Of a stretch of 44,817 nt of DNA, positions 2,737-44,817 are shown one piece after another. The translations under genes and the position numbers were made by a program. The notes beneath the pieces are model-generated. The model saw only the letters and a program-made list of their open reading frames with translations, ran no database searches and was not told where the DNA came from. Location: positions 1-44,817 of IMG/VR virus record IMGVR_UViG_3300019487_000010; one strand, 5' to 3'. Source of the stretch: a virus. The stretch's first letter is position 1. Every line of letters begins with the position of its first letter.

Positions 2737-4694
2737 CGCTGTTGCACCGTCAGGTCCGTGGCCTGCGTCACCTTGACCTCACCCAGGGTGGAGGTGGGCA
2801 AAACCACCGCGGACTTGTTGGAGACCCACAGCTTCTGCACGGAGCTCCTGGACTCCACTACGGTCTGGATCTGTCCGCCGCTGTCTGGCATGCGTCCGTG
2901 GTGCACCTTCATGAAGCTGAACCCGCCCTCGAGTCGTATCCAGCGACCTGCCGGGGCTGCACCAAACTTCGCTGGCGGCGGCGGCGGGTCAACGTCGGCG
3001 GCGTCGAAGGCCACCTCGGGCTGTAGGGTGCGCTCCTCGCGGATCAGTGAGATCGTCGCGAGGACCTCAGGGCCGGTGGCTCGAAAGAGGTGGTACTGGT
3101 TCTTCTCCCCGGAGAGCACCAGCCTCCGTTCCAGCCCCTCGTTGAACGAGTAGTGCACGGTCTCGTCGTGCCGGATCACTCGGTTGCCACGGAGGGCAAA
3201 CCAGAGCTGGTAGGAGCCCGAGACGGACATCGTGACCGGGTCAACTTGGAAGGACTCGCTCTTGATGGTGACGGGGCCACCGAAGTACGCCGCAGCCTTA
3301 CCGATGAGGGTACTCCGGAGCGCTATCCACTTGGCGGCCAACTGGGCCTCGGTGGCGCTCTTCTTCACGAAGGCAAAGTAGTTCACCGCGCCCATGACCT
3401 CAGCGATCGCGCCAGTCGAGAGCCCGTGTTTCCAGGTTCCAAACCTCGTGAACGTGATCTTCTCGCCAAGGATGACTGAGTCAGCGACCGAGTAGCTCCG
3501 CTCCCGGAACGTGGCCGAGAAGACCAGCTCCGCGCTCTCTCCGTCTCGAGTAAACGAGGGCGGATCTACCTCCTCCCAGGTGACCGCACCGTCCACCGCG
3601 GTCTTAGTGGCGTTCGCCCACGTAACGAAGTCAGCGGTGAACTTATCCTCCGCGTCTTCGCCAGCGTCGTCGGTGTGGTACATGCCCTTGAGAGCGAGGA
3701 GCTTGAGATCCGCGGGGGTCTGCGTGACCTCCACGCTCTCTCGACGCCGAAAGGTGTAGCTGGACGCGGTGATGACCACCGAGAGCCCGCCCGAGATCTC
3801 CCCCGTATCCTCCTGAAGGGTGAGGGTCTCCTCTTCTGGCGTGGCTACGTCCACGTCCCACGTGGTCTCAACCATCGTGAGCAGAGCGTCCCGCACCGCC
3901 TCGAGCTTCTCCGCGTGGTCCGCGTAGACCACCGCACTTATGTCCAGGTGCCCCCTGTAGTCCACGTGCACCACGCGGCGCTGAGCGTTCTTGACGCGTC
4001 CTCGCTGAAGCGTCATTCGCACGGACTCGTTCTTCACGTCTGCCACCCCGGTGGTGGTTCGTACCTGACGGTACGTGGCGGTAAAGGTGAGGGTGTGCTT
4101 TTCACGATCGTGCGTGGCTGGCCCTTCCGAGACCAGCTGCCAGTTCGCCGTCCCGTCCAGCGCTGTGAGCTCCGCCGTGGCGTAGGCGGTGAAGAGTGAG
4201 TTGTACTTCGCTCGCGCAGTCACGCCCGACCCGTACGTGTACTCACCAGTGATGATCGCCTGCTTGAGCCGCCCCGCAGAGAACGTGAGACCGGTGGTGG
4301 CGGTCCTCAGGAACGAGGTGCTGGAGGCGGGCCCCCGCCAGGTGATCGTGAACTCCCACAGGAGGGTCCGGTCACTATCCGCCTCCTGATCCCCGGGCGC
4401 GCGAAGCTCCGTGACAACGTTGCCCACGCTCGTGAGCTGGACTCCCTGGAAGGTCTGCCCCGAGCTCGCTACCACGAGCGTGAAGTTCGCGCTTGGCGGA
4501 GTGAGCGCTGCTACCATAGCGTCCTCGGCGGTCTTGTAGTTCGCCGGGGTGCTACCCTGCAGGATGAACCGGCACCTGATCGAGAAGGTACCGTCGTACT
4601 TGCGGGTGAACGTCTCCGTGCCGTACGGCAAGGTAGCGGCGTTGGCGCCGCCAATCTCATAGCCATTATAAGAGAGGGAAAACGGGTGCGCCAC
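2733..4694 (-). CDS. Large virion/tail structural protein (653 aa), function unknown
   Basis: Long beta-rich ORF in the tail module; 4-nt overlap with the downstream gene. Confidence 0.6.
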   Translation of the reverse strand: MAHPFSLSYNGYEIGGANAATLPYGTETFTRKYDGTFSIRCRFILQGSTPANYKTAEDAMVAALTPPSANFTLVVASSGQTFQGVQLTSVGNVVTELRAPGDQEADSDRTLLWEFTITWRGPASSTSFLRTATTGLTFSAGRLKQAIITGEYTYGSGVTARAKYNSLFTAYATAELTALDGTANWQLVSEGPATHDREKHTLTFTATYRQVRTTTGVADVKNESVRMTLQRGRVKNAQRRVVHVDYRGHLDISAVVYADHAEKLEAVRDALLTMVETTWDVDVATPEEETLTLQEDTGEISGGLSVVITASSYTFRRRESVEVTQTPADLKLLALKGMYHTDDAGEDAEDKFTADFVTWANATKTAVDGAVTWEEVDPPSFTRDGESAELVFSATFRERSYSVADSVILGEKITFTRFGTWKHGLSTGAIAEVMGAVNYFAFVKKSATEAQLAAKWIALRSTLIGKAAAYFGGPVTIKSESFQVDPVTMSVSGSYQLWFALRGNRVIRHDETVHYSFNEGLERRLVLSGEKNQYHLFRATGPEVLATISLIREERTLQPEVAFDAADVDPPPPPAKFGAAPAGRWIRLEGGFSFMKVHHGRMPDSGGQIQTVVESRSSVQKLWVSNKSAVVLPTSTLGEVKVTQATDLTVQQR

Positions 4695-7581: not shown

Positions 7582-8876
7582 GGGTCGGTGACCGTCTCCG
7601 CGCCAGCGGTGGCGTGATGGTACATCCGCTTGTACAGACGCCAAGCCCACGCCTGCATCTTGCCGTCCGCGCCGGCAAGAGCGTCCGTGAACTCGATCGT
7701 GTCGTCGAGCTTGAAGTCCGTGGTGCCTGGCCGAATCACGAGCCACGCCTTGTTATACTCGTCGAAATAGCACACGATGAACCCGTCCACCAACAAGTGG
7801 CCCGCCGACGGTGCCCACCTCAACTTGAGGATCGGGTCACCGTCGTTGAGGTTCCGGTAGTGGAGGTTCTCGTTGAGGGTCACCAGGTGAAACTGCCACC
7901 CGACCTGCGCCGCCACCACGACCGGAGCGAACGTGGCGTTGCCCACGGTGGGCGTGAGCGTCCCGCTGCCCGCGGTGAACCCGCTGATCGCGGAGTCCCG
8001 CCGATACGCGAAGCCCGCGAAGAGCGGGCGATCCGTCTTCAGCCCGCCGAGGTTGAAGAACCGCTGCTGGATGTACTTCTCCGTGGCGTTCTTGAGCCAC
8101 AGAGCGTAGCCTATGCCGGCAGGGTTGGTCGTAGAGACGTTTGCCCGTTCCTCTGGGCTCTTGCGGTAGATATCGTCGGACGTGAACCGGTAGTCCGTCA
8201 CCGGGGTCGCGTTGGTCTCCCACGCCCCCATGTCCGTGGGCACCGTCACGGTGCCGCCGAATGACTCGAAGGACGCGTCCCCGATCAACTCCGAGCCATC
8301 GTGGCACCGAACCTGTTGGGTCTCCCGTGCTCCGGTCTCGTCGAGCAGGTCCGCGCCAACGTTCTTCCCGTCGAGGGTGAACGCCTCCCGCCCGGGTTCC
8401 GCCCGCGCACCCTTGTCTTGGATGCACAAGGCCCGGGTCACCCCGAGGTACATCGCCTCGAGGTTCTTTCCGTTCTCGTTGACCGTGAGCCGATGAAGCA
8501 CTCCGTTGCCCGTGCCCGTGACTGAGCCCGCCCCGTAGTTGATCCCGCGGGTCTTGACAGTCTCGGCTGCTCCCACCATGTACTTACGCAGGTCATCCCA
8601 GAACCGAGCCCCCGCGGTCAGGTCCGGGCTGAGGATGACCCGCGCCATGTCCGTCAGGTGCGGGTCCAGGCAAGCGTGCCCGAGTTCCTCGAGGGAGGCG
8701 CCGAGGCGGCGACGATACGCCCGCGCAGCCGCCGCGGCCTTCTCCGCCTCCTCCCCGCGGAGCGAGGCGACGACCGCGTTCACCTTGGTGATCAGGGCGA
8801 TCCCCTGGGTGCGCCCGGTGTCCAGGAGGTCGACGACCGCTTTGATGTCGTCCATCTTCTGCGCGAACGTCGCCAC
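7578..8876 (-). CDS. Hypothetical virion protein (432 aa)
   Basis: Long ORF between the capsid gene and the connectors. No motif recognised. Confidence 0.55.
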   Translation of the reverse strand: MATFAQKMDDIKAVVDLLDTGRTQGIALITKVNAVVASLRGEEAEKAAAAARAYRRRLGASLEELGHACLDPHLTDMARVILSPDLTAGARFWDDLRKYMVGAAETVKTRGINYGAGSVTGTGNGVLHRLTVNENGKNLEAMYLGVTRALCIQDKGARAEPGREAFTLDGKNVGADLLDETGARETQQVRCHDGSELIGDASFESFGGTVTVPTDMGAWETNATPVTDYRFTSDDIYRKSPEERANVSTTNPAGIGYALWLKNATEKYIQQRFFNLGGLKTDRPLFAGFAYRRDSAISGFTAGSGTLTPTVGNATFAPVVVAAQVGWQFHLVTLNENLHYRNLNDGDPILKLRWAPSAGHLLVDGFIVCYFDEYNKAWLVIRPGTTDFKLDDTIEFTDALAGADGKMQAWAWRLYKRMYHHATAGAETVTDP

Positions 8877-11482: not shown

Positions 11483-12715
11483 TCAGCCCTTCAGCTGCTT
11501 CGCTCGCCGCACCCCGGAAGCCGCGGCCTCGAGGAACGCCTTCTTCCCGTGCGGGAACACCTGCCGGAACTGCGCCTCGTTCTCCTCCCAGTCCACCGAC
11601 GCCGCCCGCACCGCCTCGCGGACCTCCTCATCCGCGTCCTTGAACGCGATGAGCTCCTCGTCGTGCCCCCGGCTCTTGACCTTGCCGGGCAGCCCCCGTC
11701 CGGTCGAGATGCGGGGGCGCCCCTCCATGTAGGAGACGATGTAGCTTTCGAGGGCCTTCGTGCCCTTGACGCCGAACTCGGTGATCGTCTCCCGGAGCCG
11801 CTTCTCGTCGAAGAAGACCCCCTCCTCCTTGAAGCGCGTGACCAGGCGCCCGAGGGACTCCTCGTCCGCGCTCTGGGCGTGTCGAGCCTCGAGGGAGTCC
11901 ACGCGGGCCACGAGCCGCCCGAGCGCGGCCTCCTTGAACGGGACCCGAGCGGCGACGCTCGGACCGGGCTCACCCGTGGCCGGCGGCCCGCCCTGGCCCC
12001 CGACCGCCGCGAGGAGCTTCATGAGGAGCTCCTTGATCTCCCCCGCCCACGGCGGAACCTCCGCACCCGCCGTGGGCGGAGGCGGCGCTGGCGGCGGCGC
12101 GGCACCCCCGTCGGGCGGCGACCCGTCCGCGTACTCGGTCTTCTGGTCCTGCTCGTCCGGCTCTTCCGTCTCGAAGCCCATGCACACGTCCTCCTTGAAC
12201 TGCACCCGGCCACCCGTGGTGCTCGGCTGCTCCCAGACACAGGTGACCGGGAGCTTGAAGTACGGCGGGAAGGTCTGCATGAGCGCGAGGCTCTTGAGCT
12301 CCTCCTCGCCAGTGGAAGGCACCTCGGCGCTCCGGTACGGGAGTCTGAGGCTCTTGATCTCTTCGAACACGTCCGGCGGCACCTCTACGAGGTCCACGAA
12401 GATCGTGTCCACCAAGCGCCCGTCGAGCATGAGCGGCCGCACCGCGGGGTTGTCCATGAACCCTGCCGCACGATTCACCCCTGCCACGTCCCCGAGGTGC
12501 TCCACGTGCACTCTCGGCAAGTACCCCTGCGAGTACTTGCGGTGCAGGATCCGCGCGGCGGCTCGCTTGAGCCACCCCGAGGTCAGAGCCACACCCTTCG
12601 CCCCGTCCACCGCCGGAAGCACCGGCACCGCCCGGATCGTGTAGTTGCCGTTGCTCTGCCGCTCCGCCTCGTAGGCGTGGGAGAAGGTATTGCGGAAGGC
12701 GACGCTCCAGGTCAT
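11483..12715 (-). CDS. Putative prohead protease/scaffold (Mu gpI-like)
   Basis: Located between the MuF-like and capsid genes. N-terminal PRVHVEHLGDVAGVNRAAGF...LRLPYRSAEV resembles Mu I-type proteins. It has a Pro/Ala linker and a helical C-terminus that could be a nested scaffold. Confidence 0.5.
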   Translation of the reverse strand: MTWSVAFRNTFSHAYEAERQSNGNYTIRAVPVLPAVDGAKGVALTSGWLKRAAARILHRKYSQGYLPRVHVEHLGDVAGVNRAAGFMDNPAVRPLMLDGRLVDTIFVDLVEVPPDVFEEIKSLRLPYRSAEVPSTGEEELKSLALMQTFPPYFKLPVTCVWEQPSTTGGRVQFKEDVCMGFETEEPDEQDQKTEYADGSPPDGGAAPPPAPPPPTAGAEVPPWAGEIKELLMKLLAAVGGQGGPPATGEPGPSVAARVPFKEAALGRLVARVDSLEARHAQSADEESLGRLVTRFKEEGVFFDEKRLRETITEFGVKGTKALESYIVSYMEGRPRISTGRGLPGKVKSRGHDEELIAFKDADEEVREAVRAASVDWEENEAQFRQVFPHGKKAFLEAAASGVRRAKQLKG

Positions 12716-15700
12716 TCTTTCGCCTTTACCTCAAGATAGGTGATTCCCTCGTCCTCGTCCTTGCGAACACCGGTGATCTGCATCAGCGATGAGCGATTGA
12801 TGACCTCAGCTTCGTTCTCCCACCCCACGTTGGGCGCTATGGCGTGATGAGCCAGGATCGAACTCTTGGGCAGGGTCCCGGTCAAGACCACGGGAACCTT
12901 ACCAGCCTGTGGTTGCGCGTAGTTGTCCAGGACCACGTCCAAGTCCTCAGACCAAGAGGACGCCGCTCTCTGCGGAACCACTCCCTGATCCAGCATGGCC
13001 TGCAAGTCCGACTCGGTCAACTGCATGCCCCGATGAGCCTTGAGAGGCTTGTCTGGCAAGAGCCGCTGCGTCGCTTCGTACAAAGCTTTGACCCGAGGCG
13101 AGTTCTCGGCGACCTCCTTCAAGAGACCCTCGGGCTTTTGCCCGGACTCATCCTCTCCGCCCGTCGACCAGATGTCTAGAAACTCCCCAGTCTCAGCGTA
13201 GTCATTTCCGATGACCTCTTCCCAACGAGCAGCGGCCCTGGGATGAAGCCTCTTGATGTGCGGATGGTCACTGAACCCACCTCCCTCTCGTGGTGTGGGT
13301 CTTTCTCGAACGGGCTTGGGCGGCTCCGCTGGCTTGGGCGGCTCCGCTGGCTTGGGCGGCTCCGCGGGCTTGGACAACGACCCCTGCTCCAGAGCCTCCC
13401 GAACGGTCTTACTCCGAATCTCTGCCACCTTCCTCAAGGGATCGCTTCTGGTGCTCGCGTCGTGGAGGTCCGCCAACAACTTCGAGGATGAATAGCTGCC
13501 TGTCTCCAACTGAGCCACGTGAGCCTTCAACGAAGCCTTCAGGTGTTGGTATGACCTCGGATGCTTAGCGTGGAGCTTGTCATGGGCCTCCATCAGAACC
13601 TTGCTCACGTACGCCCGAGCCTCTGGCTGCAGTTTCGGCGGCTCTGCCTTCGGCGGCGCTGCCTTCGGCGGCTCTGCCTTCGGCGGCTCTGCCTTCGGCG
13701 GCTCTACCTTCGGCCCCAGCCCCGCGAGGTGCTTTCCGAGCGCGCCACCGGGCGAGTCCCTGCCCGCTACTCCGTGCTTCGGGGAGTGAGCTTCTCCCAC
13801 GAGGTCTTGCACGGAGAGGTCCACCCTCGCCGGCGACCCGAGGTCCACCCCGAGGTCCTCCGCGTGAGCCTTCAGGGCCTTCTGAAGGCCCTCATGCCCA
13901 AGAGCGTGAGCCGCGTTCCACGCGTGCTTCAAGAAGCTCTTGCCCAACGACCCTACCCCGTCTCCCATCATCTTCTGGGTGGCGAGCCAAGCCTTGTAGG
14001 TCGCTGCCTCGGGCCCGTGCCAGTCCCCGAGAGACTTGTGCGAAGCAGCGACCGCCCCGAGCTGTCGGATCTTCTCCGAGCCCTGCCCCTTCGAGATGAA
14101 ACGGCCGTTGACGTCACGCGGGTGCAGGTCTTCGTGCCAGCTGACAAACCGCACAACGTCACTGTGCTCACGGAGCTGACGCTGGTACTCGTCCAGCTCA
14201 TCCGCGTCCTCGTCCTCGTCCTCCCAGTAGGGTTCCAACGCGGGTGGTAGCGGATAGTAGTCGAGGTCCAGCTCACCGTCATCGTCGTAGTCATCGCTCT
14301 CGAGAGCCTCGGGCGAGACCCCCTCGGCGAAGGTGACCGTGTGCTCGTTCTCCCTGAGCTTGCCGGGATCATAGCCGACTGACCGCGCAAACTGTTCGAA
14401 AACGTTGGGGTGGATGTAGCTTGAGCGAGCCACCGCAGGGGTGTTCTGGATCACGCCAGAGACTTGCTTCGAAGCCTCCTTCAAGACCCGCGCCATCAGC
14501 TGACCCTGGGCCTTGTCTCCAGCGGGCAACGGCGGGGGCGGCGGAGTTAGGCGCTTGATCGCCTCGCGGCCCTCGCGGGTCGCGACGACTGTGCGAAAGT
14601 CCTTGGGACGAAACCCGAGTCCCGCGGTCTTCTCCGCCACCGCCCCGCGAACGCCCTGCGAGAACACCCTCTCATTCTTGCCCTTACGAGCGTAATGGGT
14701 GAGCGCCGCTACGAGCGCGGGCTCATGCACGGTTACGTCGTTCAGCTTCCCGCTCTTGCCCACGAACTGCAGCCGCACCCCGCCCTTCTCGGGCTTCACG
14801 TGCTGACCCAACAGGGTGGTCACCCCGAAGTGCCCGTGCGCAGCGACCGAGCCCTCGCTGCCAGGCCGGAGCCCGGTCACGGCGATGAGTGAAGCAGCGG
14901 TGGCAGCCTCGTGCTCCGGCGACCCGAGCGGAAGGGACCGCACCTGGCTCAAGAGCCCTGCTCGAGCCTTCTCGTACTTGGGCTCCAGCTTTTCGATCTT
15001 CACCCACTTCTTGGCCGCGTTGGCTTTGACGGTGGCGGCCGTATAGCTCTGCTGGAGCTTGCCGCTCTTGTCCCGCCAGGAGAGGATCGCCTTCCCGTGC
15101 GGGTCCGTGAGGGAGCCTACCCGCACGTCAGTGACGTCGGCCGCTGGGAGCTTCTTGACGCCGAGCTCCTTTAGCTTAGCCTGGACCGTTGGGTGTAGCT
15201 GGCTACCCGGAGCCGCCCGCTTGCCTCCGGGAGCGCCCAGGACTGGGGCTGGTCCCGGCGCCGCCGCTGGTTGCCCGCCTTTGGGGGAAAACTCGCCGCT
15301 GGCGCGCCCGTGTCCAGCGCTCACGCGAGCGTGTTGAGCCTCGTTCCACGCAAACGAGACCGTGTAGGGCTCAGCCACGGGCGCTCGCAGGTGCAGAGCG
15401 TTCCCGAAGCCTACGTCATCCGCTTGCCACGCCGTTGGCACCTCAGGATCACTCCGGGTCCACCCCTTGACCTCAGCTTCGGCGAGCGTGACGGTCCGCA
15501 GGGTGCAGCGACAGTTGAACCCGAGCGGGGGCGTGTGCCCGAACCACGCGGGATGACCCTTCGGCAGGGCCACGCGGTGGCCAGCCTGGTGGTTGTGCCG
15601 AACGTTTGGGTCGTTGGCGGTGAGAAACTGAAAGCCCCAGAGCTTTGGGTGACACCGCGCCTCGAGCACCTTGCCTCGATTGAACGCCTTTACGACGTTC

Positions 15701-20501: not shown

Positions 20502-20540
20502 CGCCTCGATCTCCTCCGGACTGGGCCCCGTTTCCGGGGA

Positions 20541-20662
20541 GGCTCCCCTGTATTCAAACTGCACTTTTGTTCCCCAGCCCCTCCCCGCACCGGCGGGCAC
20601 GCGCCCGCGCCCGCGCAGGAAGCCCCTTTTGCACAAAAGTGCAGTTTGAATACAGGGGAGCC
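20541..20662. repeat. Palindromic element copy 1: 30-bp perfect terminal inverted repeats around a 62-nt GC-rich spacer
   Basis: 20541-20570 GGCTCCCCTGTATTCAAACTGCACTTTTGT is the exact reverse complement of 20633-20662. A second copy lies at 39696-39817. Confidence 0.9.
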
Positions 20663-21923: not shown

Positions 21924-22034
21924 TCACCCGTCGTTGAGGGTCGCGTCGTACCACGCGGCCCAGATCCGCCGCTCCGCCATGTTCGCTTCCTGCTCCGCTC
22001 GCTCCGCCTCGCACAGCAGCCAGCCCGTCCGCAC
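21924..22034 (-). CDS. Possible 36-aa ORF filling the gap before the nuclease gene
   Basis: GTG at 22034 preceded by ACAGGGGC. The peptide is VRTGWLLCEAERAEQEANMAERRIWAAWYDATLNDG, and its stop lies 5 nt before the next ATG. Confidence 0.25.
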   Translation of the reverse strand: MRTGWLLCEAERAEQEANMAERRIWAAWYDATLNDG

Positions 22035-22050
22035 GAGCCCCTGTCGCTGC

Positions 22051-22452
22051 TTAGTCGTGGTGACGACGGGGGCGACGACGGGGCTGGCCAGGCACGGAGC
22101 CGTTCGGCGGCGGCGCGACCTCGGGCCGCTTTTCCGCGAGAAACGCACGCCGGAGCGCTTCGGGCAAGAGCTCAAGCCGATCCTCCTTCTTCGCCGCTGC
22201 GACTCGCTCCGCGCACGCGTGGCAGAGCCGCACGCTCAACATGCACAGGTCCCCGATGACCACGTGGGTGATCACGTAGTGCTGGGTGTGGACCCAGCAC
22301 CCGTGGCAGGCTCCCTCGGGGAGCTTCTCGGGCTGAACCCTCGTGGGCACCGTGTTCGTCATGAGCTCCCGCACAAACCGCTTGTGGTCCTCGGTCACCT
22401 CCTCGTGTTTGAGCCCCAGGATCTTGATCGCAGCTTCAGTCCACCTGCTCAT
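22051..22452 (-). CDS. Hypothetical Cys/His-rich protein (133 aa)
   Basis: ORF with CHGCW...CHAC motifs, coupled to the ligase gene. Confidence 0.5.
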   Translation of the reverse strand: MSRWTEAAIKILGLKHEEVTEDHKRFVRELMTNTVPTRVQPEKLPEGACHGCWVHTQHYVITHVVIGDLCMLSVRLCHACAERVAAAKKEDRLELLPEALRRAFLAEKRPEVAPPPNGSVPGQPRRRPRRHHD

Positions 22453-23203
22453 CGGCGAGCTCCTTGTCCTCGCGCACCCGTACGAGGCGGGGGAACCGGA
22501 GCCGCCCGCCCGCCGCGACGCTGTCGTAGGCTACCTCGACCACCATGCCCGCGCGCCAGCTCGTGAAGAGCTGAGCTCGCACCTCGTCGGTCATCCCGCT
22601 CACGTTCGCGACCACCGTGCCGTCTCGGCGAGCGCACACCAGCGAGCCGAGGGTCCCTGCGAACTTCCCCGCTGAGCCCTCCTTGACGTCCACGACCTGG
22701 AGGTCGCAGGTCCGCACGGGCTTGAGCTTGTACGTGTCGTACACGCACCGCTTGTGACGGTAGACCAGCCCCTCCCAGGCTGCGGCCTGGAGGAAGCGAA
22801 GCGCGTCTACCTCGTCGAGAGCCTTGTACGAGACCACGTGTGGAGTCTCGAGCCCGAGCCGCTTGAGCAGGAGCACGTGCTTTCTCGTGGAGAGCTCCTC
22901 CCACGGACCCTCCGGGGTCTCGAGCACCTGCCACGCGGTGAACCGCACCCGCCTCACTCCCGCCTTCAAGGCGGTCAACACCGCGGTCGCGGGCTCAGCC
23001 TCGAGCCACGCCTCGCCTAGAACGACGAACCCGGGTGGGACCCCGGGTAGGGGTCGCCTCGGGTAGCGGGTACGTTCGCCCGTGAACGAGTTCCTCCCTC
23101 GTCCCAGGGCGTCTTCCCGAGAGAGGGTCACCTGGAGCCCGTCGTACTTCCGTTCGACGAGCGTGAGCCCCGGCGGGATCAGCCCCGCCCTCCATGGCTT
23201 CAT
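22436..23203 (-). CDS. lig: ATP-dependent DNA ligase (small, T7-like)
   Basis: Motif I ERKYDGLQV (KxDG), motif IV EGLVYRHK, motif V YKLKPV. I chose the ATG at 23203, which shares its A with the upstream TGA. Confidence 0.8.
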   Translation of the reverse strand: MKPWRAGLIPPGLTLVERKYDGLQVTLSREDALGRGRNSFTGERTRYPRRPLPGVPPGFVVLGEAWLEAEPATAVLTALKAGVRRVRFTAWQVLETPEGPWEELSTRKHVLLLKRLGLETPHVVSYKALDEVDALRFLQAAAWEGLVYRHKRCVYDTYKLKPVRTCDLQVVDVKEGSAGKFAGTLGSLVCARRDGTVVANVSGMTDEVRAQLFTSWRAGMVVEVAYDSVAAGGRLRFPRLVRVREDKELADEQVD

Positions 23204-23430
23204 CAGCACCTCCAGTAGAGGGCGTCTCGCCCGCACCGCGGGCACGTTTGAGCAATGCCGCTCCCCACTCGGAGGTGAAGCCAGCCGCTGACGAGGTGAC
23301 TTACCACCTCGTCAGCGCGCATGACCCCCGGCTCGTCGGAGGGAAGCGGCACCACGATCCCGCCGCACTGGCAGGCGATCATCTCTCCAGGCGGGTAGGC
23401 GAAGGTGCGGCGAGTGAGCGGGCTCACCAC
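23203..23430 (-). CDS. Small zinc-ribbon protein (75 aa)
   Basis: CQC ... CPRC cysteine pairs; GTG start. Confidence 0.45.
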   Translation of the reverse strand: MVSPLTRRTFAYPPGEMIACQCGGIVVPLPSDEPGVMRADEVVSHLVSGWLHLRVGSGIAQTCPRCGRDALYWRC

Positions 23431-23684
23431 CCCGTCTCGGTCTCGGTCTCGAGCCAGGTGGGAACGAGGCAGGTGAGCGCCGGCCGCGGGTCCTCGCTGA
23501 ACACGTAGAAGCGGTGCTGCGAGTCGTCCTCGAGGTAAAGGCCACAGCCTCGCGAGTACTCGTCCCCGAGCTTCGGGTAGAGCGGGTAGAACCCCGGACC
23601 ACGGTCCAGCTTGAGCGTGAGCTCCGCCTCGAGTAGCTCACGCGTGGCTCGTACGAGCGACCAGTCTGGGATCGGGTACTGCAT
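23424..23684 (-). CDS. Hypothetical protein (86 aa)
   Basis: ATG at 23684 preceded by GAGGAGGAAGG, 1 nt after the upstream stop. Confidence 0.45.
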   Translation of the reverse strand: MQYPIPDWSLVRATRELLEAELTLKLDRGPGFYPLYPKLGDEYSRGCGLYLEDDSQHRFYVFSEDPRPALTCLVPTWLETETETGW

Positions 23685-23685
23685 G

Positions 23686-23988
23686 TCACCTTCCTCCTCT
23701 TTGCTTTCCGAGCGCCCGTTCGAGCTTTTTGATCTCACGGGCCATGTCCGCGAGCTTGTCCGCTAACTTAGCGGGCTTGGCTCGTTTGAGAAGCTCCCCG
23801 TACTCTCGCTCGAGCGCGTGTATCGTTCCGACGTCGCGCTCGATCTGCTGATCCAACTGCGGGATCGCCTTCTCGATAAAGGCGAGTCGACCCTTGAGGA
23901 CCTCGCGCTCGTGCACCCGCGTGAGCATGGCGCACCGTGCGGTTTGAAGGCGCTTGTAGAGCGCCTTCTTGTCGCCCTCGTAGGTCAC
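23686..23988 (-). CDS. Hypothetical coiled-coil protein (100 aa)
   Basis: GTG start 6 nt after GGAGA in the conserved leader GGAGACAGCAG. Confidence 0.5.
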   Translation of the reverse strand: MTYEGDKKALYKRLQTARCAMLTRVHEREVLKGRLAFIEKAIPQLDQQIERDVGTIHALEREYGELLKRAKPAKLADKLADMAREIKKLERALGKQRGGR

Positions 23989-24003
23989 CTGCTGTCTCCT
24001 GTC

Positions 24004-24066
24004 CGCCTACCTCGTCAGCGCGCGGAGGCGACCCGCGCGGACCCCGCCCGTAGGCGGGGTTTCGGC
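24004..24066 (-). ncRNA. Type II hammerhead ribozyme motif HH-A
   Basis: Minus strand: GCC-GAAA-CCCCGCC-UACG-GGCGGGG-U-C/CGCGCGG-GUCGCCU-CCGCGCG-CUGACGA-GGU-AGGCG. All core nucleotides are present, with a GUC cleavage triplet and a loop I / 3' tail pseudoknot. Confidence 0.8.
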
Positions 24067-24067
24067 T

Positions 24068-24511
<444 letters not shown>

Positions 24512-24534
24512 CTTTCTCGCTCCTGTCTCCGAGG

Positions 24535-24597
24535 AACCTGCCTCGTCAGCGCGCGGAGGTCACCCGCGCGGACCCCACCTGCGGGCGGGGTTTCGGC
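24535..24597 (-). ncRNA. Type II hammerhead ribozyme motif HH-B
   Basis: Minus strand: GCC-GAAA-CCCCGCC-CGCA-GGUGGGG-U-C/CGCGCGG-GUGACCU-CCGCGCG-CUGACGA-GGC-AGGUU. The core is intact, and the differences from HH-A preserve pairing. Confidence 0.8.
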
Positions 24598-24885
24598 TCA
24601 GAAGTTCAGGCAGCCCGACTTGCCGCTGCCGTACCGAACCCGGATCTGCGTGAGCCTGAACCTGAGGAGCTCCCGCTTGGAGGTGTACTGGCCGTTCACA
24701 GCCTGGAAGTCCTTGTTTTCGTCGAAGTCCCTCTGCGCAGCCTCGAGGGAAGGGTACTTTCGGCCGTACGCGGCGCGGAGCGGCTCCAGCCCGAAGAGGC
24801 TGAAGGGGAACCCCGCTAGGCGGCCCTCGTTCGCGCCCTTCGCCTGGTCATCGAAGCTCTCCTGAAACCGCTCGAGGTTGCTCAT
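24598..24885 (-). CDS. Hypothetical protein (95 aa; possibly N-terminally longer, up to 24987)
   Basis: ATG at 24885 preceded by AGGAGAACC. The track ORF extends through a Pro/Ala-rich stretch from a GTG at 24987. Confidence 0.5.
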   Translation of the reverse strand: MSNLERFQESFDDQAKGANEGRLAGFPFSLFGLEPLRAAYGRKYPSLEAAQRDFDENKDFQAVNGQYTSKRELLRFRLTQIRVRYGSGKSGCLNF

Positions 24886-24904
24886 CTGGAGGTTCTCCTG
24901 TGCT

Positions 24905-25012
24905 TTAGACCCGGAGGGCGGCGCGAGCGAGGCGGCGGGCGCGGCGACGGTCGCCGCGGCGGGTGGCGGGGTCGTGGGTGTGACCACGGGGGTCGTGGCC
25001 GTAGAAGCGCAT
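24905..25012 (-). CDS. Possible 35-aa Arg-rich leader ORF directly after HH-C
   Basis: ATG at 25012 preceded by the conserved AAGGAGACAGCAG leader. The peptide is MRFYGHDPRGHTHDPATRRGDRRRARRLARAALRV, ending at TAA 24907-24905. It could equally be an off-frame artefact. Confidence 0.2.
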   Translation of the reverse strand: MRFYGHDPRGHTHDPATRRGDRRRARRLARAALRV

Positions 25013-25033
25013 TTTCTGCTGTCTCCTTCTGTC

Positions 25034-25096
25034 CGCCTGCCTCGTCAGCGCGCGGAGGCGACCCGCGCGGACCCCGCCCGTAGGCGGGGTTTCGGC
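25034..25096 (-). ncRNA. Type II hammerhead ribozyme motif HH-C
   Basis: Identical to HH-A except that stem II position 10.3 is C instead of U, so G:C replaces G:U. Confidence 0.8.
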
Positions 25097-25105
25097 TCTA
25101 CGGCT

Positions 25106-25489
25106 CTACTCCTGGGCGGTCGGAGCAGGACCCTCGTCCAGGTGCTCAACGGTCGGAGCGGGCGCGATCTCCTGGAGCCTCGCCTGGAGGCGAGCGATCT
25201 TGCGAGCGATCTTCTCCGCCGGCGAGAGCGGCGTCCGCGGAGCGGGCTCGAAACGATCGCGGTCCGCGCGCACCTGGCGGAAGGCGGTGCGGGCCGCGGT
25301 GAAGGCGTCGCGCCAGAGCGCGAGGTTCTCACGCGCGCTCTTGACCTCCGCGCGAGCGGAGCGGAGGTCGTTGCGCGTGAGCTGGAACTGCTCGTCCAAC
25401 GTGCGCCGCGCCTCGTCGTGGCGAATCCGCGGCTGAACGGCGGGGGCGCTCTTCTTCGTGCTCTTCGTGCTCTTGCTCTTCTTGGCCAT
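25106..25489 (-). CDS. Hypothetical protein with a Lys/Ser/Thr-rich N-terminus and coiled coil (127 aa)
   Basis: ATG at 25489 preceded by AGGAGACAGCAG. The longer track ORF would start inside the promoter. Confidence 0.55.
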   Translation of the reverse strand: MAKKSKSTKSTKKSAPAVQPRIRHDEARRTLDEQFQLTRNDLRSARAEVKSARENLALWRDAFTAARTAFRQVRADRDRFEPAPRTPLSPAEKIARKIARLQARLQEIAPAPTVEHLDEGPAPTAQE

Positions 25490-25552
25490 CTGCTGTCTCC
25501 TGCGCCCGCGGTGCGGGGGGTTTGAGGCTGCGGGCTCCCTGCTCACGCTCAT

Positions 25553-25561
25553 ATTGTACCA
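25553..25561 (-). promoter_or_regulatory. Extended -10 promoter element TGGTACAAT
   Basis: Minus strand reads TGG TACAAT. It sits about 60 nt upstream of the first small gene, and a 7-bp hairpin (25561-25578) overlaps the -35 region. Confidence 0.45.
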
Positions 25562-25567
25562 AAGCAC

Positions 25568-26014
25568 GGCTGTGCTTTTTCGAAGAAAGTTCTAAGAGCA
25601 ATCCTGCCACCACTTGTGTCGAGAACTATTTTCTCGGCATGAGCTTTGCCGCACTTTGCCTTTTGAGCCCTCGATGCAAGTGCTTTCCCTCCCCTAACTT
25701 GTGGCCCGGAGCTTATTTGATTTCCCTGGCTTTTCCGCAAGTGCTTACCCCGTAAGCCCTTGCAACAGGGGTCCTAAGTGCTTATAGCATAAGCAGTTAG
25801 GAAGCGCAATAGGAGCGCTCTGGGCCGCACGGTTTGCCCGGTAAGGGTTGCCCACTGCTTGCCACCAGCATGCGGCCCAGAGCGCTCCTGGCTATGCCAG
25901 CGAGCAGCCCAGCTTGCCACCAGCCCCGCGCTTGCTGCGCGGGCTTGCCCGGCAAGTGGCCCACCGTTTGCAGATCCCGAGCTGGCCTGGATTTTGCTTC
26001 CCTGGACGAATCGC
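25568..26014. promoter_or_regulatory. ~450-bp non-coding hub with reduced GC, GCAAGTGC-type repeats, TTGCC repeats and two large palindromes (candidate origin / regulatory region)
   Basis: No ORF here has phage-like GC3. My hand count over 25561-25800 gives about 50% GC. Repeats are listed in the findings. Confidence 0.5.
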
Positions 26015-28015
26015 TCACGAGGCACCCCACCCACGAAGCTCAAGGGCGCGCGACGCCGCGAGCGCGGAGGCGAGCTCCGTTGCGAGCGCGACCGGGTCAT
26101 GCGTGAGCGGATGAGCCTTCACCTTGCGAGCGTGACCCCACGACCGTCCGCTCACCTTCATGTCAACGATGAGCGGGAGCCGCAGGCCCCAGTCCTCCGG
26201 GTCCTCGAGGAGTCGCCAGAGCTCAAGCATGAAGGGCAGGAGCTCGCTCTCCTTCACGGAGAAGAGGAGCGAGTCATGCACCATGATGAGGAGTTTCGCT
26301 CCCCACCGCGGCTCGAGCTCACGGAGCACCCGCAGAACCTTCACCTTGAAGATGTCCGCGGCTCCGCCTTGGATCACGTAGTTCAGCGCCTTGTGGGAGC
26401 CCTGCTCGGGGTTGAACCGGTACACCCGCCCAAGGACGTTACGAACCCACCCGCGTCGCTTGACCAGCCGCTTGACCTTCGTTTGCAGGGCTCGGATCGA
26501 AGGGAACTCCCGGTGGTAGCTGTCGTAGATCTGCTGAGCCAACAGGTCCGTGGTCCGAGTGTCCAGCTTCTCAGCGCGCTTCGCGGTCTGAGTGCCCGCG
26601 CCCATCAGGAGCGTACGCATGGCGGCCTTCATCTCACCGGCTCCGCCCTGAGCCTCCTTCAGCTTCAGGGTCGCCGCGAGGTTCTTGAGGAGCTTGGCGC
26701 GACCCATCCCGTAGACGAACGAGAAGTTCAGCTGCTTCGCGAACTGGCGATCCACCCCGAGCCGGGTAGCCAAGGACTGGTGGAAGTCCGTGAACGGGTT
26801 CTCGAGGAACGCGGCCAACACGCGGGCGTCGTTCGCGTAGTGCCCGAACAGCCGGTACTCGATCTGGCTGTAGTCCACGGACAGGAGCACCTCGTCCGCC
26901 TCATGAGGCTCTACGAACGCCTCCGCCTCCACGGGTACGTTAAACAGTGAGGGATTCCGGCAGGACATGCGTCCGGTCGCGGCTCCCGCTTGAGCGATCC
27001 CCGGGTGCAGAAGCTCCTGCTCATCCACCCGTTTGAGCCAGCCCTCCACGTAGGTGGCGAGGAAGTGTTGGTTCTTGCTGTACTCCGAGAGGAGCTTTCC
27101 CACGGGATGGTTGAGCGTCTCGAGCGCCATCGAGTCCCACTGAGGCTTCCCGCTCTTCGTGAAGGCGAGGGGATGGAAGCCCAGCTGACCCATCAACAGC
27201 TGACTCACGTCCTCGTCAGCCCCAGGGTCACACATGAAGTCAGCGACCTGGTTGACCTCCTCCCAGAGCTGGACCTGCCGCGCCAACAGCCCGTGCTGAG
27301 CGCGCTTGATCGCCTCCACCTTGACCGGAAAGCCCCGCCGCTCCACCCGCAAAAGCTCCCGGGTAAGCGGCACCTCCACCTCGGACCAGAGGCGGCGACT
27401 CAGGTCCGGAAGCCTCTCCTCAGCGGCGCGGAAACAGTCCGCCGTGACTAGAGCGTCGCTCTCCGCGTACTCACCGAGGAGCTCTACGGGGGCCTTCGCG
27501 TAGTCCTTGGTCTTCGCACGGCGGCGCCACGGGGTGAGCAGGTCCTTCCCCCGCTTTCGGTGCTCCGCGTTGAAGACCGCTGCGAGGTAGTGCAGCTGAT
27601 ACGAGGGCAGATCGTTGTGGGTCAGTCGCGAGATCACCCAGAGGTCCTCGATGGAGGCTGCGCTCAGCCAGTCAACCCCGTCTACGTACGCGAAGTGGGC
27701 GTCAAACTTCACGTTATGGTTGATCACCCGTCGGTTCCGCACTAGGTCGCTCAGCCAGCGGGTGGCGCCCTCAAGCTCCACGTTGTCACCATCGTAGTGC
27801 CGCAGGGGCACATAGGTCGACCATGCCCCGTCGAGGGTAGCCACGCCCCAACTCACCGCTCGATCCCCACAGAAGGGCTGGTCCCCGTAGCGATCATCGA
27901 CAAACCCCGTGGTCTCCACGTCGAGCACCACGGGCACGCCGGGAGGAGGAAGCTCCTTCAACTCGCCCACCAGAGCCTCCCCTCCTCCACAGCCTCGTTG
28001 AGGCGAGCCACCCAC
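26015..28015 (-). CDS. polA: Family A DNA polymerase with 3'-5' exonuclease domain
   Basis: Exo I VLDVETTG, Exo II NHNVKFDAHF, Exo III YAESDALV; Pol motif A LLSVDYSQIEYRL, motif B RQFAKQLNFSFVYGMG, motif C IMVHDSLLF. The true start may be GTG 27970 or TTG 27961 (TTGA overlap). Confidence 0.9.
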   Translation of the reverse strand: MGGSPQRGCGGGEALVGELKELPPPGVPVVLDVETTGFVDDRYGDQPFCGDRAVSWGVATLDGAWSTYVPLRHYDGDNVELEGATRWLSDLVRNRRVINHNVKFDAHFAYVDGVDWLSAASIEDLWVISRLTHNDLPSYQLHYLAAVFNAEHRKRGKDLLTPWRRRAKTKDYAKAPVELLGEYAESDALVTADCFRAAEERLPDLSRRLWSEVEVPLTRELLRVERRGFPVKVEAIKRAQHGLLARQVQLWEEVNQVADFMCDPGADEDVSQLLMGQLGFHPLAFTKSGKPQWDSMALETLNHPVGKLLSEYSKNQHFLATYVEGWLKRVDEQELLHPGIAQAGAATGRMSCRNPSLFNVPVEAEAFVEPHEADEVLLSVDYSQIEYRLFGHYANDARVLAAFLENPFTDFHQSLATRLGVDRQFAKQLNFSFVYGMGRAKLLKNLAATLKLKEAQGGAGEMKAAMRTLLMGAGTQTAKRAEKLDTRTTDLLAQQIYDSYHREFPSIRALQTKVKRLVKRRGWVRNVLGRVYRFNPEQGSHKALNYVIQGGAADIFKVKVLRVLRELEPRWGAKLLIMVHDSLLFSVKESELLPFMLELWRLLEDPEDWGLRLPLIVDMKVSGRSWGHARKVKAHPLTHDPVALATELASALAASRALELRGWGAS

Positions 28016-39502: not shown

Positions 39503-39691
39503 CTACGGCAAAACCTCCACGAACAGGTTCACCGTCTGCCCGGGCTGAAGCCCCCAGTCGCTCGGGAACAAGAGCGCCCCGACCTCGCGGAGCGCCCCTC
39601 GCTCGTCTCGCTCCGCGAACGTCACCTGAAGGGCTCCTGGCTTCGGAGCCATCTGAACTCCGAACACGACCACCTTCACGCTCTGGTTCAT
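39503..39691 (-). CDS. Hypothetical small protein (62 aa)
   Basis: I chose the ATG at 39691. Its SD (AGGGGAG) lies inside the 3' arm of the palindromic element. Confidence 0.4.
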   Translation of the reverse strand: MNQSVKVVVFGVQMAPKPGALQVTFAERDERGALREVGALLFPSDWGLQPGQTVNLFVEVLP

Positions 39692-39695
39692 GGGC

Positions 39696-39817
39696 GGCTC
39701 CCCTGTATTCAAACTGCACAATTTGAAAAGTGGCTATGCCTGCGCGGGCGCGGGCGCGTGCCCGCCGGTGCGGGGCTCCCCTTTTGCACAAAAGTGCAGT
39801 TTGAATACAGGGGAGCC
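39696..39817. repeat. Palindromic element copy 2: 24-bp perfect terminal inverted repeats around a 74-nt spacer
   Basis: 39696-39719 is the exact reverse complement of 39794-39817. The arms are identical to copy 1, and the 37-nt core is inverted relative to copy 1. Confidence 0.9.
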
Positions 39818-42380: not shown

Positions 42381-44817
42381 GCGCTGGGCCCTCGGATGAC
42401 GGTTAGCTCCGCGCGCTCGACGTAGGACTCGTCGCCAACGTTGCCGGGCTGCACGCGCAAGAACACGTCGATGTCGCCCGTGGTGTCAGGAAAGACGCCG
42501 CTGGTCGCCTCCACGTCGTAGTAGGGCACGCCGTTGAGCGTGGCCTCCCCGTGCAGGGCCCTGTAATGGGTCTGCACCACACTCACCACGTCGATGGTCC
42601 GCACCTCGAACTCGACCTCAACCTCGATTCGCCCGGGCTCGTCGCTCTCCCCGTAAGCGGGCAGGTTGACCACCACAGCGGCCGTCGTGCCGACGCAGAC
42701 CTTCCAGGTGGCGATGTTCGTCACCGCCCCGACGCTGGGCCGGTACGTCGTCAGGCGCGCCCGTAGCCGGAAGCGCGTCCCGACCTCGATGACCTCCTCC
42801 GGAACGGTGAGGGTCTCCACCGTGGTCAGCGCCACGGTGCCGGTTAGCACGTCGGACTCCTCGGTCACCTCCAGGACCTGGAGGAGATCGGGCACGCCGG
42901 TGATCGCCCCACCAGTGATCGCAACGGCGTCCGCGTCCTGCGTCGCTATCGAGCCCATCCCCAATGTGTTCCGCTGCGCGGCGGCGTTCGCGTCGTCGAG
43001 GAGCGCCTTGCCGGCGGCGGTCAGGCCGTAGGTCGCCGCGGTGCCAGCGCCGGTGAACTGGATGCCCTTGTCGGCTGCGCTCGTGAGGCCGGCGATCGCC
43101 GTCAACTCGGCGTCGAGCGGCTGGTAGCCGGCCGCGACGTGCTCCTCGGTGGCGAGCGTCCCGTCAGCGTCGGGCGCCTGCAGGTCCCGCTCGTCGGTCA
43201 CGTTGTCAGCCAAGAACCGCGCCCACAAGCCGTCCCCGACCCGGCTCGCCCCGAAGGCGATGCGCAGCGCACCGACGGTCAGCGGCACGGTGCCGGCGTT
43301 GGCCCCGTCGACAGCCTCCAGCCCTGGCGGGTCGAAGACCAGGTCGGGGACGAAGCCAGACCGGACACCCGCGTTGCTCGGGCCCAGCGCGAGGAGCCCG
43401 TCGGCGCCCAGGCGAGCGCGCTCGGTCGCGGTGCCAGCCGCGTCATGTGACTTGAAGGTCAAGGCCCTGTCACTCTCGAGCCCCCATGACCACCCCTCCT
43501 TCACCCCGCCCGTGCCTAGCTCCGGGCACCCTGCTGCGTATCGCACCCAAGACTTCAACGCAAGGAGGTACGCGGAGTCTGGGGTCACGCCTCGACGAGA
43601 GAAGCAGTCCCCGTCGAAGTCACGCGCGGTAATCACGCCAGGAGCGAGCACGATACCGCCCGGCCCCGCGTTGTAGGGACGCAGGCGATCAGCGTTGAGG
43701 CCAAGCTTCGGCCCGCGTTCTTGACCGTAGGTGAAGAGCCGAAGCACCACCGGAGCGTACTCGAGGTACCGCCGCGCTGCGTGCTTGGCACGACGATCAT
43801 ACCGTCCGTCGAAGACCTTGCCATAGAGCCCTTGCACCGGAAGTGCCCGCAGGGCGAGGCCAGGCAGGTGAAGCTCATGGGTGCTTCCCACCCAACCGTG
43901 GTGCTCATCTGCGCCATCGATGGCCTCTTCGCCCTCACGACGGATTCGCTCAATCTCCTCCGACACCGGGTCAGGAACCACTGGCGGTACGCGAGGCGCT
44001 GGCGGACGGGGGCGCAACTTACGCGGAACCCGCACTGGCTCCAGGGGAGGCAGCCGCGGGTCATCTGGCACCGGATCTGTGGGCCCCAGAGGAACGGGGT
44101 TCTGGGGCGTGAAGGGCTCTTCCCCGTCCCCGGGCAGACCCCCTCCGTCGCCGGGTCCGTCGCCGGGTCCGCCGCCGGGCTCCTCAGGTTCATCATGACA
44201 GAGCGGGCTCGAGGTGCACCAAGCCCACTCTTCACGGGCAAGGTTGTACCCAAAGTGGACCGCGGTAGGCTCAGAGAAGTCCTGCCCCGCCCGGTAGTCA
44301 GCGACGGACATGCGACCCTGGAACCCGTCTCGCACCCAGTCCACCTGAAGGTTCAAGCAGAGGTTGCGAAGCGGTTCACCGTTCGCGTTGGCTCCTAGAT
44401 CCACACTGGGATTACCGAACCCGGACGTGAACGGTCCTTTCGCCTCGCTGTTGAAGCAGAGGACGTTGCCGCCTGGCCCCCGCCCGCTGGTGGCAGCACG
44501 ATAATCCATCGGCAGTTGAGTCCAGAGCCCGATCACCCCGTGGTGCCCGCCGAAGCGGCGCTCTGCCCCGTTCAACGCGATGACCGTCGCTACCCCAGCG
44601 AGGGGACCCGAAGCGGTCTTCTCCGAGAGGGGCCTCGTCACGAGAGCGCTCTCAAGGCCTGCTCGTTGAGAGCGCTGCGGACTCACGGCGCTTACTCGCC
44701 AGCCCTGAACTTGCGTAGAGAAGCTCGCCTCTCCATGACGGGGGGGTCGCTCATCGCTGTGCAGTCGGTTGTCCCAGCCGGGCATGAACAGCCCCTCTTG
44801 GCTGAGTTCATCCGTCC
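42377..44817 (-). CDS. Tail fibre protein, main part (continues upstream across the junction into 655..124)
   Basis: GYQPLDAELTAIAGLTSAADKGIQFTGAGTAATYGLTAAGKALLDDANAAAQRNTLGMGSIATQ is the widespread phage tail-fibre motif. There is a Pro/Gly-rich hinge. The frame is open to the window end. Confidence 0.8.
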   Translation of the reverse strand, partial: TDELSQEGLFMPGWDNRLHSDERPPRHGEASFSTQVQGWRVSAVSPQRSQRAGLESALVTRPLSEKTASGPLAGVATVIALNGAERRFGGHHGVIGLWTQLPMDYRAATSGRGPGGNVLCFNSEAKGPFTSGFGNPSVDLGANANGEPLRNLCLNLQVDWVRDGFQGRMSVADYRAGQDFSEPTAVHFGYNLAREEWAWCTSSPLCHDEPEEPGGGPGDGPGDGGGLPGDGEEPFTPQNPVPLGPTDPVPDDPRLPPLEPVRVPRKLRPRPPAPRVPPVVPDPVSEEIERIRREGEEAIDGADEHHGWVGSTHELHLPGLALRALPVQGLYGKVFDGRYDRRAKHAARRYLEYAPVVLRLFTYGQERGPKLGLNADRLRPYNAGPGGIVLAPGVITARDFDGDCFSRRGVTPDSAYLLALKSWVRYAAGCPELGTGGVKEGWSWGLESDRALTFKSHDAAGTATERARLGADGLLALGPSNAGVRSGFVPDLVFDPPGLEAVDGANAGTVPLTVGALRIAFGASRVGDGLWARFLADNVTDERDLQAPDADGTLATEEHVAAGYQPLDAELTAIAGLTSAADKGIQFTGAGTAATYGLTAAGKALLDDANAAAQRNTLGMGSIATQDADAVAITGGAITGVPDLLQVLEVTEESDVLTGTVALTTVETLTVPEEVIEVGTRFRLRARLTTYRPSVGAVTNIATWKVCVGTTAAVVVNLPAYGESDEPGRIEVEVEFEVRTIDVVSVVQTHYRALHGEATLNGVPYYDVEATSGVFPDTTGDIDVFLRVQPGNVGDESYVERAELTVIRGPSA
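44695..44817. repeat. Second copy of the 123-bp terminal duplication
   Basis: Identical to 1-123. Confidence 0.95.

Follow-up and report, generated by a model that had tools for sequence, protein, structure and literature searches.

The window analysed here is a stretch of 44,817 nucleotides of viral DNA, covering positions 1 to 44,817 of IMG/VR record IMGVR_UViG_3300019487_000010. Its minus strand carries an element termed HH-B, which lies in the 86-nt gap between two small open reading frames (ORFs), ORF2 and ORF3, of a phage genome. Two sister copies, HH-A and HH-C, are found in neighboring gaps, within a block of small genes that runs from a family A DNA polymerase to a DNA ligase. Judged from its sequence, predicted fold and family, HH-B is very probably a functional type II self-cleaving hammerhead ribozyme of the minus strand. 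A sequence-only reading of this DNA had already interpreted the element as a hammerhead. This interpretation is supported by a complete core, three helices, a pseudoknot and, on the coding strand alone, a score that exceeds the gathering threshold of Rfam. The parts of HH-B and its upstream boundary are as follows.

24535-24597, minus: HH-B, complete type II hammerhead, beginning with the 5′ strand of stem II and ending with the pseudoknot tail (Rfam, descriptor, fold)
24598-24600, minus: UGA stop codon of the upstream ORF2, abutting HH-B; its last base is Rfam model position 1
24595-24597, minus: stem II 5′ strand GCC, which pairs with GGC at 24540-24542
24591-24594, minus: core G12 A13 A14 and A15.1, invariant in the alignment of 150 hammerheads
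24572-24591, minus: stem III hairpin, A15.1 and CCCCGCC with GGUGGGG and U16.1, loop CGCA (24580-24583)
24570-24571, minus: predicted cleavage site between C17 (24571) and N1.1 (24570), placed relative to the conserved core
24550-24570, minus: stem I hairpin CGCGCGG / CCGCGCG, loop GUGACCU (24557-24563)
24543-24549, minus: core CUGACGA (C3 to A9), invariant in the family except N7
24540-24542, minus: stem II 3′ strand GGC (sequence, descriptor)
24535-24539, minus: 3′ tail AGGUU, pseudoknot partner of loop I (five pairs)

Read along the minus strand, HH-B is GCC-GAAA-CCCCGCC-CGCA-GGUGGGG-U-C / CGCGCGG-GUGACCU-CCGCGCG-CUGACGA-GGC-AGGUU, the slash marking the predicted scissile bond. The sequence-only reading was exact to the base in its minus-strand sequence, in its placing of the predicted scissile bond at 24571/24570 and in locating the UGA at 24600-24598. 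The order of the strands is that of type II: stem II 5′ strand, GAAA, stem III, cleavage site, stem I, CUGANGA and stem II 3′ strand. Stems I, II and III are 7, 3 and 8 bp long, and stem III includes one G:U pair that uses the U at 24577. The hammerhead core rule is followed throughout, with CUGACGA at 24549-24543, GAA at 24594-24592, the A15.1-U16.1 pair and a C, not a G, at H17. The pairs adjacent to the core are intact as well, namely G10.1 (24542):C11.1 (24595), C1.1 (24570):G2.1 (24550) and A15.1 (24591):U16.1 (24572); candidates with a mispair directly beside the core were not accepted as hammerheads by Perreault et al. (2011; PMC3088659). In the pseudoknot, GACCU of loop I (24561-24557) faces AGGUU of the tail (24539-24535) in the pairs U:A, C:G, C:G, A:U and G:U. 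The minimum-energy fold of HH-B is the canonical three-way junction.

The Rfam model of type II hammerheads, RF02276, matches HH-B over its full length (model positions 1-66) at 24532-24598 on the minus strand, with 45.1 bits against a gathering score of 37 and E = 3.7e-6 in the window. The sister copies were matched with similar scores.

25031-25097, minus: HH-A, sister type II hammerhead, Rfam 49.2 bits
24001-24067, minus: HH-C, sister type II hammerhead, Rfam 47.8 bits; its stem II 3′ strand is GGU, which gives a G:U pair

A permissive Rfam scan of the window gave no further credible match and no plus-strand hammerhead. The Rfam family BTE matched the plus strand at 24553-24650 with 23.6 bits (gathering score 45; E = 0.5), which was judged to be a chance hit. 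A purpose-written hammerhead descriptor found three elements on the minus strand and none on the plus strand, compared with a mean of 0.015 in the dinucleotide-shuffled window. All defining features of a type II hammerhead that can be tested computationally are present in HH-B.

Changes among the copies and covariation in the family

The three copies in the window were aligned and then compared position by position. HH-B and HH-A show exactly 8 differences over 63 nt. Three of these fall in loop III (UACG to CGCA), one in the 3′ strand of stem III (C to U at 24577, G:C to G:U), two in loop I (CG to GA at 24561-24560) and two in the tail (CG to UU at 24536-24535), and the core, stem I and stem II are the same in both copies. 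The pseudoknot changes from CGCCU:AGGCG in HH-A to GACCU:AGGUU in HH-B, with 5 bp retained. When HH-A was given 8 random substitutions, the core, all helices and the pseudoknot survived together in 2.6e-5 of the trials. With two random changes in loop I and the tail held fixed, the pseudoknot survived in 9.5% of trials (p ~0.095). Taken alone, the pseudoknot covariation between HH-B and HH-A is weak evidence because of the tail's position at the repeat edge.

The sequence-only reading had described the differences of HH-B as compensatory, with covariation in stem III, stem II and the pseudoknot, and the alignment bears this out in part. The free change of loop III, the changes of loop I and tail in step with the five pseudoknot pairs kept, and the unchanged core and stem I strands were all recovered. 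The same holds for the stem III change from G:C to G:U, which would be an A-C mismatch on the plus strand; only the minus-strand RNA can form the G:U pairs of HH-B stem III and HH-C stem II. The pseudoknot change is two-sided, whereas that in stem III is one-sided and preserves pairing through a wobble. Stem II is unchanged in HH-B, and the stem II change, GGC to GGU, belongs to HH-C. For stems III and II, the description as covariation is overstated.

HH-A and HH-C are 97% identical over 77 nt (23996-24072 and 25026-25102), a likeness that extends to loop III, the spacer and the ribosome-binding site. This near-identity amid unrelated genes points to recent copying or gene conversion of a cassette made up of ribozyme and ribosome-binding site. 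A Logan assembly of the same phage (L144) ends within HH-A.

Covariation across the family was assessed in an alignment, A3, of 150 hammerheads from ~100 loci, the three window copies included, which was built with a covariance model seeded from 20 hammerheads of similar geometry. A MAFFT alignment of diverse hammerheads (A2) placed the window copies one column off; it served solely as a seed, and the sequences were then realigned with the covariance model. Early greedy counting of loop/tail helices on the first pattern set was noisy and was superseded by fixed-register counts. In A3, stems I-III are 97%-99% paired, their covariation score is 0.614 against 0.137 after shuffling, and both sides change in 14 of the 16 stem pairs. 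Pairing is found in 92.1% of the cells, compared with 62.7% after shuffling and 34%-42% in slid registers; for the stems, these values come from an alignment that was itself fitted to the stems of the model.

The pseudoknot columns are not fitted in this way, because the covariance model contains no pseudoknot. Here 58.4% pair, compared with 48.6 +/- 1.3% after shuffling, and the covariation score is 0.101 against 0.053; neither value was reached by any of 500 shuffles. A second pseudoknot register, offset by one, is also in use among the hammerheads of A3. The family-wide check proposed in the sequence-only reading, run on these 150 phage hammerheads, shows that the stems and the pseudoknot both covary.

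A pattern scan of viral contigs gave at least 120 loci, and the matches listed include 92 distinct phage type II hammerheads (L020-L139). In the register used by the window copies, four contiguous pseudoknot pairs are formed by 33 of these 92, with 21 loop/tail combinations. The HH-A combination CGCCU:AGGCG is also present in L098, L121 and L139, and the HH-B combination GACCU:AGGUU in L044. The entire 8-nt tail of HH-B, AGGUUCCU, is likewise found in L044 (four ribozymes) and in L083, where the stems are quite different. Since both the combination and the tail recur in unrelated contigs, the pseudoknot of HH-B may be a common variant and not a set of freshly compensated HH-A mutations. On the evidence of the alignment, the loop I/tail pairing is under selection under either origin of the HH-B variant.

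Gene context and related phages

The two ends of the window (1-123 and 44695-44817) are identical over 123 nt, and the window corresponds to contig k141_1478206 (44,820 bp) of ENA analysis ERZ27251177, which is circularly permuted relative to it. The window is probably a complete phage genome of ~44.7 kb, either circular or terminally redundant. Its G+C content is 65%. The large ORFs all lie on the minus strand and include those for a family A DNA polymerase, a primase-helicase, a small ATP-dependent DNA ligase, the large terminase and a tail fiber. The small genes around the three hammerheads are listed below.

25489-25106, minus: ORF1, orphan, between polymerase and ligase
25012-24905, minus: mini-ORF of 35 codons, arginine-rich, directly after HH-A
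24598-24885, minus: ORF2, 95 amino acids (aa) with the ATG at 24885 as start, upstream of HH-B
24068-24511, minus: ORF3, 147 aa, downstream of HH-B, a divergent member of an uncharacterized phage protein family
23988-23686, minus: ORF4, orphan, between polymerase and ligase

The three ribozymes occupy the gaps between ORF1 and the mini-ORF, between ORF2 and ORF3 and between ORF3 and ORF4, all on the coding strand. The layout is the same each time: a stop codon, the ribozyme, a GGAGACAG-type ribosome-binding site and a start codon. The stop codon of ORF1 lies 9 nt upstream of HH-A and does not abut it as at HH-B and HH-C, because of an 8-nt tandem duplication, TAGAGCCG TAGAGCCG (25093-25108, minus), ahead of HH-A. 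The mini-ORF uses the GGAGACAGCAG ribosome-binding site shared by the other genes and ends 20 nt before the ATG of ORF2. The start of the longest ORF, a GTG at 24987, overlaps the mini-ORF in a different frame; the gene caller on the ENA record likewise predicts genes of 35 and 95 aa. The mini-ORF may encode a leader peptide or be what is left of a frameshifted gene. Comparison of ORF1-ORF5 with Pfam, PHROGs and NCBIfam gave sub-threshold coiled-coil noise only. BLAST between ORF1, ORF3 and ORF4 gave E values of 0.05-0.35 in a very small database, which is suggestive only, and paralogy is not claimed.

A scan for sigma-70 promoters and terminators between 22000 and 26500 found none on the coding strand. 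Between the polymerase and ORF1, a gap of 450 nt (25555-26014, minus) contains AAGCACTT three times (~25785-25680). In the same gap, TGGTACAAT at ~25563-25555, just after a short hairpin, resembles an extended -10 promoter element. This region may be the promoter of the hammerhead-bearing operon; the consensus promoter scan did not call it. Elsewhere in the window, an intergenic element of ~140 nt is present in two copies (20525-20662 and 39680-39817). It is edged by perfect 24-nt inverted arms, GGCTCCCCTGTATTCAAACTGCAC ... GTGCAGTTTGAATACAGGGGAGCC in the minus-strand reading, and its GC-rich center is oppositely oriented in the two copies. Among the possible identities of the element are a regulatory hairpin, a small mobile element and an invertible segment.

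When 10 kb surrounding the locus were compared with GenBank phages by Megablast, no match was obtained, and the polymerase of the window is at most 29% identical to those of deposited phages. The exact stem I/core pattern had no match in the viral and genome collections, where no identical stem I was present. In metagenomes, the pattern retrieved three unrelated hammerheads, which share stem I by chance and have pseudoknots of their own. Distant relatives, whose polymerases are 28%-29% identical to that of the window, carry 3 to 5 hammerheads within the same polymerase-to-ligase interval. In L006/L003, three Rfam-level type II hammerheads lie directly downstream of the polymerase, and the ligase then follows in L006. 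L008 has five type II hammerheads downstream of the polymerase (12332-14042), all below the Rfam gathering threshold, which were found by the descriptor and by our own covariance model at 30-40 bits. In two of the L008 hammerheads, loop I has no obvious partner in the tail.

A single-sequence search with ORF3 gave no matches. A 4-sequence profile, made from ORF3 and its L006 and L008 homologs, retrieves 45 proteins, all of them hypothetical and lacking a known domain. Members of this family are encoded at 24068-24511 in the window, 12356-12802 in L006, 12817-13200 and 14082-14477 in L008, and at 4001 in L148, L150 and L152. The family consensus includes AVPEGFDF..KPLKKKDF and KAKRLIKL.EKMAELK.QL..QGIDVE. 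Comparison of the profile with the PDB found nothing below E = 0.19, and PHROGs gave no assignment for the family members. The AlphaFold model of ORF3 (predicted template modeling score, pTM, 0.37) has a disordered basic N terminus and a confident helical hairpin of a generic kind (residues 55-115); the ORF3 protein of the window also carries a 40-residue acidic tail. The contigs that were fetched solely through ORF3 homologs (L148/L149, L150/L151 and L152) contain four to seven type II hammerheads each, with 7 in the L150 array. One type II hammerhead stands directly upstream of the ORF3-like gene in L148, L150 and L152, as HH-B does in the window. Overall, a member of the ORF3 family directly follows a type II hammerhead in three of four independent contigs.

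The arrays of L006/L003, L008 and L148-L152 resemble that of the window in lying downstream of a family A DNA polymerase and upstream of a ligase. Their layout is also alike, with a stop codon, a ribozyme, a AGGAGACA-type ribosome-binding site and a start codon, and an ORF3-like gene after a ribozyme. In contrast to HH-B, their stem II is GUC/GAC and not GCC/GGC, their other stems and pseudoknots differ, and they number 3 to 7 copies. The G+C content of the array phages ranges from ~40% (L006, estimated by reading, not computed) to 65% in the window. Two core variants occur in otherwise normal arrays: CCGAUGA (U4 to C) in L006 at 13620-13685 and CUAUGACGA, with extra bases within the core, in L152 at 3905-3975.

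The spacing around HH-B is typical of the 92 phage hammerheads listed. In 58 of them (63%), the upstream ORF ends with its stop codon no more than 6 nt from G12, thereby abutting or overlapping stem II; the distance is 3 for HH-B. The next start codon with a ribosome-binding site follows stem II at a median of 28 nt, and at 28 nt for HH-B. The Rfam model begins with a conserved A (position 1), which may be no more than the final base of a UAA or UGA stop codon. Very large arrays among the matches listed include those of L041 (at least 12 in ~5 kb), L053 (9) and L024 (8). In L145, whose polymerase is ~40% identical to that of the window and which is without an array, a gene with an Acb2/Tad1-type anti-defense domain (8021-8341) comes right after the polymerase; this position may be an accessory-gene hotspot.

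Proposed cleavage, alternative readings and meaning

From the observed sequence, fold, family membership, covariation and conserved arrangement, we infer that transcription of the minus strand yields an mRNA spanning several genes, which runs from the DNA polymerase in the direction of the ligase. In this RNA, stems I, II and III would fold around the 13-nt core, and the 5-bp pseudoknot GACCU:AGGUU would hold stems I and II side by side. The RNA would then cleave itself after C17 (24571). The upstream product would end 27 nt past the stop codon of ORF2 in the GC-rich 8-bp stem III hairpin with a 2′,3′-cyclic phosphate. The downstream product would begin with a 5′-OH at the base of the 7-bp stem I hairpin, followed by the ribosome-binding site of ORF3 and, 28 nt after stem II, by its AUG. 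Together, HH-A, HH-B and HH-C would convert one transcript into single-gene mRNAs with hairpin-protected ends. Terminal hairpins and 5′-OH and cyclic-phosphate ends hinder RNase E, RNase J and 3′ exonucleases, so the RNA pieces should have stabilities of their own, through which cleavage would act on mRNA stability and expression. Separate stabilities of the cleaved pieces are a hypothesis of Perreault et al. (PMC3088659).

Type II hammerheads, the pseudoknot between loop I and the 3′ tail, and clusters of these ribozymes flanking phage genes were described by Perreault et al. (2011, PLoS Comput Biol; PMC3088659). The class, the pseudoknot and the clustered phage arrangement were thus already published in 2011, and HH-B is an ordinary example. 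In the triple arrays of three bacterial prophages, all ribozymes cleaved in vitro, and pseudoknot mutants lost speed (PMC3088659). Type II hammerheads of Desulfovibrio vulgaris that lie near phage-like genes cleave in vivo (PMC8782182). HH-B does not differ in structure from the RF02276 type II hammerheads: it shares their core, the phage setting and the pseudoknot present in most of them, in which loop I forms at least 4 bp with the segment after stem II. Its stem sequences are unique to this phage, and its tail is AGGUU in place of the consensus AGCCA. As in the prophage arrays of Agrobacterium tumefaciens, Azorhizobium caulinodans and Clostridium scindens, co-oriented ribozymes separate small variable genes, and the proposed role, the conversion of a long phage transcript into single-gene mRNAs, is common to both. 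Unlike these prophage arrays, the HH-B array is situated in the replication module, from polymerase to ligase, of a free phage whose metagenomic genome appears to be complete. The flanked genes also differ, being orphans in the HH-B phage and ardA in the prophage arrays.

A further parallel is RiboJ, which is said to be an engineered insulator, ascribed to Lou and colleagues in 2012, that combines a satellite-RNA hammerhead with an added hairpin. RiboJ reportedly stands just upstream of a ribosome-binding site and gives the downstream mRNA a defined 5′ end that opens with a hairpin, uncoupled from the upstream sequence, as HH-B would. In contrast to RiboJ, as it is described, HH-B is natural, is of type II and would also set the 3′ end of the upstream gene.

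Several points weigh against a functional HH-B. No HH-B ortholog was found in the viral, genome and metagenome collections searched, and there is no orthologous copy to compare, because the phage has no close relatives there. The array is absent from the closest polymerase relatives, L001, L145 and L146 (36%-42% identity). The folding energy of HH-B is close to that of shuffled sequences (z = -1.1; range in the test -1.1 to -2.0), and it was dropped as evidence because GC-rich shuffles fold just as well. The biological role of such arrays is still a hypothesis only in the field (PMC6765202). Finally, the tail of HH-B has a predicted second partner.

24519-24537, minus: predicted alternative hairpin, tail GUUCCU (24532-24537) with AGGAGC (24519-24524), in which the ORF3 ribosome-binding site lies; a hypothesis only

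The hairpin is predicted at -7.7 kcal/mol, and the pseudoknot duplex of HH-B is estimated at ~-4.3 kcal/mol (HH-A, -8.4). By these nearest-neighbor energies, the tail is predicted to favor the hairpin over the pseudoknot, which could slow cleavage.

The same hairpin allows for a switch. The tail of HH-B would pair either with loop I, forming the pseudoknot and permitting fast cleavage, or with the ribosome-binding site of ORF3, which would then be masked, and cleavage would be coupled to translation and not constitutive. Nucleotides 1-5 of AGGUUCCU would form the pseudoknot and nucleotides 3-8 would pair with the ribosome-binding site, and the two states would be mutually exclusive. The hairpin has a pairing probability of >0.95 and belongs to the minimum-energy fold before and after cleavage, and the tail is kept in the four L044 copies and in L083 despite wholly different stems. 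However, pairing with the gene's own ribosome-binding site is predicted for only 3 to 4 of the 6 tails of the HH-B type, HH-A and HH-C lack such a tail, and only three independent genomes are concerned. Motifs complementary to a ribosome-binding site are not enriched in hammerhead tails (13 of 150, with 13.2 +/- 3.2 expected), and a GGAG site pairs with any CCU-rich stretch. Such a switch, in either its general or its detailed form, is unlikely.

HH-B could instead be a relic, a non-cleaving intercistronic RNA whose GC-rich hairpins serve as stability or termination elements. Two strong hairpins do stand at each gene junction, and some array hammerheads may be non-functional (PMC3088659). Against a relic, all three copies retain every core position and the pairs beside the core, loop III and the spacer are free to vary among them, and the pseudoknot has been preserved by two-sided changes. 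Nor is there a U-tract or a terminator-like site on the minus strand in the region scanned (22000-26500). A relic is quite unlikely.

That the hammerhead likeness is incidental, the element being a protein-binding, recombination or mobile repeat at the DNA level, is very unlikely. The three direct 77-nt copies lie ~500 bp apart, the near-identity of HH-A and HH-C suggests recombination or gene conversion, and assemblies break there. The covariance-model match is nevertheless strand-specific, the G:U pairs being A-C mismatches on the other strand, and the substitutions obey RNA pairing. Other phages, moreover, keep the structure with entirely different stem sequences, unlike a DNA-binding site.

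RNAs with 5′-OH and 2′,3′-cyclic phosphate ends are substrates of RtcB. It is extremely unlikely that the ribozymes flanking ORF2 and ORF3 release RNAs for a host RtcB-type ligase to join into circular or rearranged forms, for although the end chemistry fits and Perreault et al. raised the possibility, they looked for spliced or circular products and found none (PMC3088659), no RNA ligase gene is seen near the array, where the ligase has DNA-ligase OB domains, and ORF2 and ORF3 have ordinary start and stop codons.

As type II hammerheads, HH-A, HH-B and HH-C account for three ~80-nt repeats in the phage genome and for the assembly breaks there, and they add three members to a ribozyme family already numbering thousands. 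The block of small genes from polymerase to ligase is marked as a unit whose mRNAs are probably processed individually. The additions to what was known are modest: a regular stop-ribozyme-start layout and, in a phage group about which little is known, an array whose position is conserved. This layout, together with an array place that is conserved, beside the uncharacterized but conserved small-protein family, between phages whose polymerases are only 28% identical, sharpens the mRNA-processing hypothesis and overturns nothing.

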